NCBI RefSeq assembly: GCF_000026545.1
Contig: NC_011601.1
Origin: Escherichia coli O127:H6 str. E2348/69
Lineage (GTDB): Bacteria; Pseudomonadota; Gammaproteobacteria; Enterobacterales; Enterobacteriaceae
DNA: 64,000 nucleotides
Direction: 5' to 3' (one strand)
The notes beneath the pieces are model-generated. The model was given only the letters and a program-made list of their open reading frames with translations, was not told the origin of the DNA and made no database searches. The stretch's first letter is position 1. Every line of letters begins with the position of its first letter. Position numbers and translations under genes: made by a program. Positions 31,500-31,522 of this stretch are shown piece by piece.

Positions 31500-31522
31500 A
31501 ATAAGGATGTTGTAACTAAAGT
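31500..31522 (+). other. replication terminus site TerB (Tus-binding, 23 bp)
   Basis: AATAAGGATGTTGTAACTAAAGT contains the Ter core GTTGTAACTA and the G6 position; lies in the tus promoter and overlaps the first in-frame GTG of the tus ORF. Confidence 0.8.

Follow-up and report, generated by a model that had tools for sequence, protein, structure and literature searches.

In the fork trap of E. coli, the sites TerB, TerC, TerF, TerG and TerJ stop the clockwise fork, and the high-affinity sites (TerA to TerE, and TerG) are occupied in vivo (Toft 2021, PMC8707476). [quoted passage not shown] TerB also lies in the tus promoter, and Tus autoregulates through this site, as described by Toft 2021 (PMC8707476) and by Goodall 2021 (PMC8347550). 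In other Enterobacterales, the Ter sites next to tus (Ter1 of the narrow type I fork traps, Toft 2021) carry G6 and a conserved core just upstream of the tus start. In Goodall 2021 (PMC8347550), the primary ter sites were compared in five genomes, with 17 in the supplement, E2348/69 among them, and ter variation was concentrated in positions 1-5, positions 19-23 and 'the variable position 7'. The same paper describes no base-specific contacts of Tus with position 7 in the bound or locked structures, and little effect of changes at this position (PMC8347550, citing Coskun-Ari & Hill 1997). A later review from the same group gave '1-2 SNPs/23 bp' for terB across E. coli (2023 review, Goodall group, PMC10331603).

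The closest described relative of our site is TerB of K-12 (AATAAGTATGTTGTAACTAAAGT). We analysed a 64-kb stretch of DNA (the window, taken at its full length), in which a first-pass annotation had placed TerB in the tus promoter and had given T at Ter position 7 for K-12, where the window has G. The exact letters, re-read from the window, are AATAAGGATGTTGTAACTAAAGT (Table 1). This 23-mer occurred only once in the 64-kb window at up to 3 mismatches, with 0.00 occurrences expected from 100 dinucleotide-preserving shuffles, and a looser Ter pattern, GNNNGTTGTAACNA, had one perfect match in the window, which was the same site. Alignment with K-12 MG1655 showed T at Ter position 7, whereas the window has G, and the remaining 22 of 23 bases were equal, including G6 and the entire core of positions 8-19. 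The T7 given for K-12 was thus correct, and K-12 does not carry the identical 23-mer. The locus is orthologous to that of K-12, with which it shares the flanking genes, the orientation and the 10-bp distance to the tus ATG; apart from position 7, the two are distinguished by a small number of SNPs within the intergenic spacer upstream of the site, e.g., at 31483 and 31489. Because the site is syntenic upstream of tus and its G6 and core 8-19 are the same as in K-12 TerB, it was identified as TerB, as the first-pass annotation had proposed. The 401-bp query around TerB matched three E2348/69 / O127:H6 chromosomes at 100% identity and found matches of at least 90% identity in 5,423 of 5,426 complete E. 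coli genomes. We are highly confident that the 23-mer is the TerB of E2348/69 or of a near-identical O127:H6 strain, and that its G7 is neutral or nearly so. The feature is an ordinary TerB, well known and predicted to act as the tus operator, and the G7 allele is covered by variation that has been published before.

Table 1. Coordinates of TerB, its parts and its neighbours in the 64-kb window.
Feature	Coordinates	Strand	Basis or remark
TerB, predicted Tus-binding replication terminator and tus operator	31500-31522	+	Exact sequence, uniqueness, K-12 alignment, synteny
G6	31505	+	Supplies the G:C6 pair whose C6 would lock into Tus
Polymorphic base at position 7 of Ter (window G, K-12 T)	31506	+	K-12 alignment, genome counts
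Ter core, positions 8-19, ATGTTGTAACTA	31507-31518	+	12/12 same as K-12 TerB
rstA	29373-30152	+	ORF list
rstB	30156-31457	+	ORF list; ends upstream of TerB
tus, terminus-site-binding protein, 309 aa and stop	31533-32462	+	K-12 Tus match; tus in matching RefSeq records
fumC	32459-33862	-	ORF list
Putative -35-like hexamer TGGTCA	31472-31477	+	Cross-genus conservation; consensus scan did not call it
Putative extended -10-like element TGCTATAAA	31492-31500	+	Cross-genus conservation; last base is Ter position 1

The gene order rstA-rstB-TerB-tus / fumC, orientation included, matched the annotation of K-12 MG1655. The gap between TerB and the tus ATG was 10 bp (31523-31532); the GTG at 31521 given in the ORF list was merely the earliest in-frame start codon, and tus starts at the ATG at 31533. 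An intact cognate Tus of 309 aa is encoded beside the site. It was identical to K-12 Tus at 308 of 309 residues, with I23A as the single difference; codon 23 lies at 31599-31601 of the window. We also observed that tus and fumC are convergent and that their 3' ends share 4 bp (32459-32462), an overlap that is annotated identically in K-12 (1685185-1685188).

A second Ter site in the window was considered and rejected. The Ter-core-like string CGTACAGATGTTGTAACCATTGT, at 7079-7101 on the minus strand (core 7088-7101), matched Ter at positions 8-17 and 19. Its position 6 was A and its position 18 was C, and it was antisense within the 808-aa ynfE (5339-7765, +). One-mismatch matches to the 14-mer Ter pattern numbered 8 in the window vs 3.7 expected. 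As the string is without the locking G:C6 pair, it is most likely a chance match.

TerC and TerG of K-12 are useful for judging the G at position 7. K-12 TerC has G7 and is read G6-first on the plus strand, as is K-12 TerB, and terG is given as GTCAAGG..., i.e., with G7, in the supplement of Goodall 2021 (PMC8347550). The resemblance to TerC and TerG noted in the first-pass annotation was therefore borne out, for TerC by the K-12 sequence and for TerG by that supplement. Both sites share G6-G7 followed by the ATGTTGTAACTA core with the window site, and they belong to the same polarity class, which arrests the clockwise fork. However, they differ from the window site in that they are at other loci, have other outer positions (1-5 and 20-23) and lie outside the tus promoter. 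These two high-affinity, lock-forming sites show that G7 can go together with strong binding and locking. They and the account of position 7 in Goodall 2021 agree with the first-pass expectation that the variant should still bind Tus.

The strand of the window site and its orientation relative to tus were those of K-12 TerB, and its strand was also that of K-12 TerC, G6 being read first on the plus strand. This supported a predicted non-permissive face toward lower coordinates, against the clockwise fork. By analogy with K-12, for which the literature describes the interaction, the Tus encoded just downstream would bind the G7 allele of TerB. A fork moving toward higher coordinates (clockwise) would unwind the site from the position-1 end and free C6, the complement of 31505, so that the complex would lock and the fork would be arrested, while a fork moving toward lower coordinates would displace Tus and pass. 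GC skew of the plus strand was negative over most of the window, indicating that replication normally runs through the region toward lower coordinates and hence in the permissive direction. Permissive passage is what would be expected, because for the clockwise fork the site is beyond the usual meeting point of the forks. The K-12 orientation, the gene order and the GC skew thus agreed with the earlier proposal that forks travelling toward higher coordinates, i.e., clockwise, meet the non-permissive face.

The upstream region was also compared with other loci. A consensus sigma-70 scan of 31380-31600 called no promoter; the -10-like element was missed because the rule demands T at hexamer position 6, which TATAAA fails. 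However, conserved elements were found upstream of the site (Table 1). The -35-like region was kept as GGT(G/A)GTCA in most Escherichia and Citrobacter loci, and the distance from TGGTCA to TGnTATAAA was a fixed 17-bp spacer wherever it was checked (Escherichia and Citrobacter loci), though the spacer sequence was variable. In most Enterobacterales loci sampled, other genera included, the Ter site was immediately preceded by TGnTA(T/C)A. A TGnTAnA -10-like motif precedes the tus-vicinal Ter sites of other Enterobacterales as it does in the window, and this arrangement agrees with the earlier description (PMC8707476). Judged from this conservation, the region resembles a promoter of the extended -10 type, in which the last base of the -10 element is Ter position 1. 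Such a placement predicts that transcription begins around Ter positions 7-9, within the footprint of Tus. By analogy with K-12, Tus on TerB would act as an operator-bound repressor of the promoter of its own gene, with the -10-like element directly adjoining the site.

The frequency of the two alleles in E. coli was counted with megablast queries of 35 bases, built such that position 7 lies within every possible 28-base seed word; a genome is thus matched only through the queried allele. Any 28-mer match to the G7 allele was found in 2,770 of 5,426 complete E. coli genomes (about 51%, which is the share of assemblies and not a population frequency, the genome set being skewed heavily to clinical and laboratory lineages), and any 28-mer match to the T7 allele in 2,615 of the 5,426. 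G7 and T7 matches jointly covered 5,385/5,426 genomes. The G7 variant is therefore common, a point that goes beyond the first-pass annotation. At the level of exact 35-mers, the K-12 type AATAAGT was present in 2,336 genomes, ATTAAGG (T2 and G7) in 1,260 and the window type AATAAGG in 822. Among the fetched examples, AATAAGG was found in the window, CFT073 and an ST131 isolate, and ATTAAGG in 042, O157:H7 and the BL21 derivative Rosetta2-DE3; the allele starts are AATAAGGATG... for the window, ATTAAGGATG... for O157/BL21 and AATAAGTATG... for K-12. Rarer forms were GTTAAGG in strain A7 and ATAAAGT in EBJ003, the latter through a 1-bp insertion. At least five TerB haplotypes (AATAAGT, AATAAGG, ATTAAGG, GTTAAGG and ATAAAGT) thus exist in E. 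coli, according to the alignment of E. coli TerB regions to 31440-31560. The figure given in the 2023 review (PMC10331603) agrees with the T7G and A2T+T7G haplotypes counted here. In E. albertii, positions 1-7 of the site read ATAAAGT as well, as in EBJ003.

Outgroups were taken from a scan of species-representative genomes with the pattern ATGNNNCGTTAYGA, in which the Ter core is linked to the start codon of tus. The scan returned 31 loci, from which one (L012, Pelagibacterales) was dropped as a chance match, as it was without G6. The sample is incomplete, for the scan missed Salmonella, E. fergusonii and all E. coli loci save that of SCPM-O-B-8794, and within it the non-Escherichia tus-adjacent Ter sites (Citrobacter, Erwinia, Cedecea, Franconibacter, Entomohabitans and others) had T7 in 25 cases and G7 in 0. 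The outer positions of these sites were also unlike those of the window site. Among the Escherichia loci from the scan, T7 was found in two (E. albertii and Escherichia sp. MOD1-EC7003) and G7 in three (E. whittamii, Escherichia sp. E1V33 and 'E. coli' SCPM-O-B-8794). Because 25/25 non-Escherichia sites had T7, this base looks to be the older one in the family and G7 appears to be derived within Escherichia. G7 had been suspected to be ancestral from its presence in 042, O157:H7 and B2 strains; however, this was ruled out at the family level by the same 25/25 sites. The genome labelled 'E. coli' SCPM-O-B-8794 (NZ_JAATUR010000015.1, 2920-3016, -) comes from a one-genome-per-species set; its TerB was AATAAGGATGTTGTAACTAAATT (G22>T), and there were synonymous changes at its tus start.

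The site and its G7 could be read in other ways. Short strings resembling the Ter core do arise by chance, that at 7088-7101 being an example, and the 23-mer might be such a string without any Tus-related function. However, it agrees with K-12 TerB at 22/23 positions when 0 chance matches were expected, and it occupies the syntenic spot 10 bp upstream of tus, where a Ter site is kept across Enterobacterales, so we give this reading practically no weight. It is also very improbable, if slightly less so, that the G at 31506 comes from faulty sequencing or assembly, or that it is a mutation private to the isolate. The sole point in its favour is that this base departs from the K-12 reference, while the same G was present in the 2,770 independently assembled complete genomes counted above (CFT073, ST131, 042, O157:H7 and BL21 lineages) and in three other Escherichia species-level genomes. 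The possibility of a misread base, raised in the first-pass annotation, was thereby removed.

Of the alternatives, only an effect of the T7/G7 difference on function keeps some weight, though we consider it quite unlikely. The two alleles might tune the affinity of Tus or the lock kinetics at TerB, or they might change tus transcription or repression and thus give allele-specific Tus levels. Position 7 is within 1-2 bp of the predicted tus start (-1/+1) and beside the locking C6, and T7 and G7 are each frequent in E. coli and each recur in further Escherichia species; T7 in all 25 non-Escherichia sites is a hint of some constraint. However, two frequent alleles would be equally expected of a neutral SNP that tracks lineage structure, and the placement of the tus start near position 7 is itself a prediction from sequence conservation. 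Furthermore, the little mutational effect and the lack of base-specific contacts reported for position 7 in Goodall 2021 argue against a functional difference, as do TerC and TerG, which have G7 and are nonetheless high-affinity, lock-forming and bound in vivo. Our literature search found no measurements of Tus binding, lock formation or fork arrest made with precisely this G7 TerB sequence. Taken as a whole, the evidence favours G7 as a neutral or nearly neutral natural polymorphism, which would fit a contact-free position, a base common to TerC and TerG and an allele carried by about half of the E. coli genomes. If the functional reading were true, the T7/G7 alleles would give a lineage-specific tuning of the fork trap.

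The practical meaning of the result lies mainly in the choice of allele. The canonical TerB oligonucleotide of biochemistry is the K-12 allele, while G7, with or without T2, is present in about half of the complete E. coli genomes. Carriers of G7 include a BL21 derivative, O157:H7 and the CFT073 and ST131 uropathogen lineages, and work on TerB outside K-12 should take the native allele. In addition, TerB confirms that the window covers the replication terminus region, with a normal fork trap of E. coli, and it settles how the window is oriented. The importance of the finding is otherwise small; it makes no open question testable.

Some minor observations were made on the fetched loci. Over the 121 bp aligned, the TerB region of the BL21 derivative was the same as that of O157:H7 and unlike that of K-12, and recombination in the region might explain this identity. 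In the ST131 example, G>A was found at 31525, two bases past TerB (GTGATTAAT), where the ribosome probably binds for tus translation; several hundred of the one-mismatch matches to the G7 query are probably due to this flank variant. One plasmid-labelled record in the E. coli genome set contained the rstB-TerB-tus region with G7 and is perhaps a piece of chromosome that was mislabelled or misassembled.
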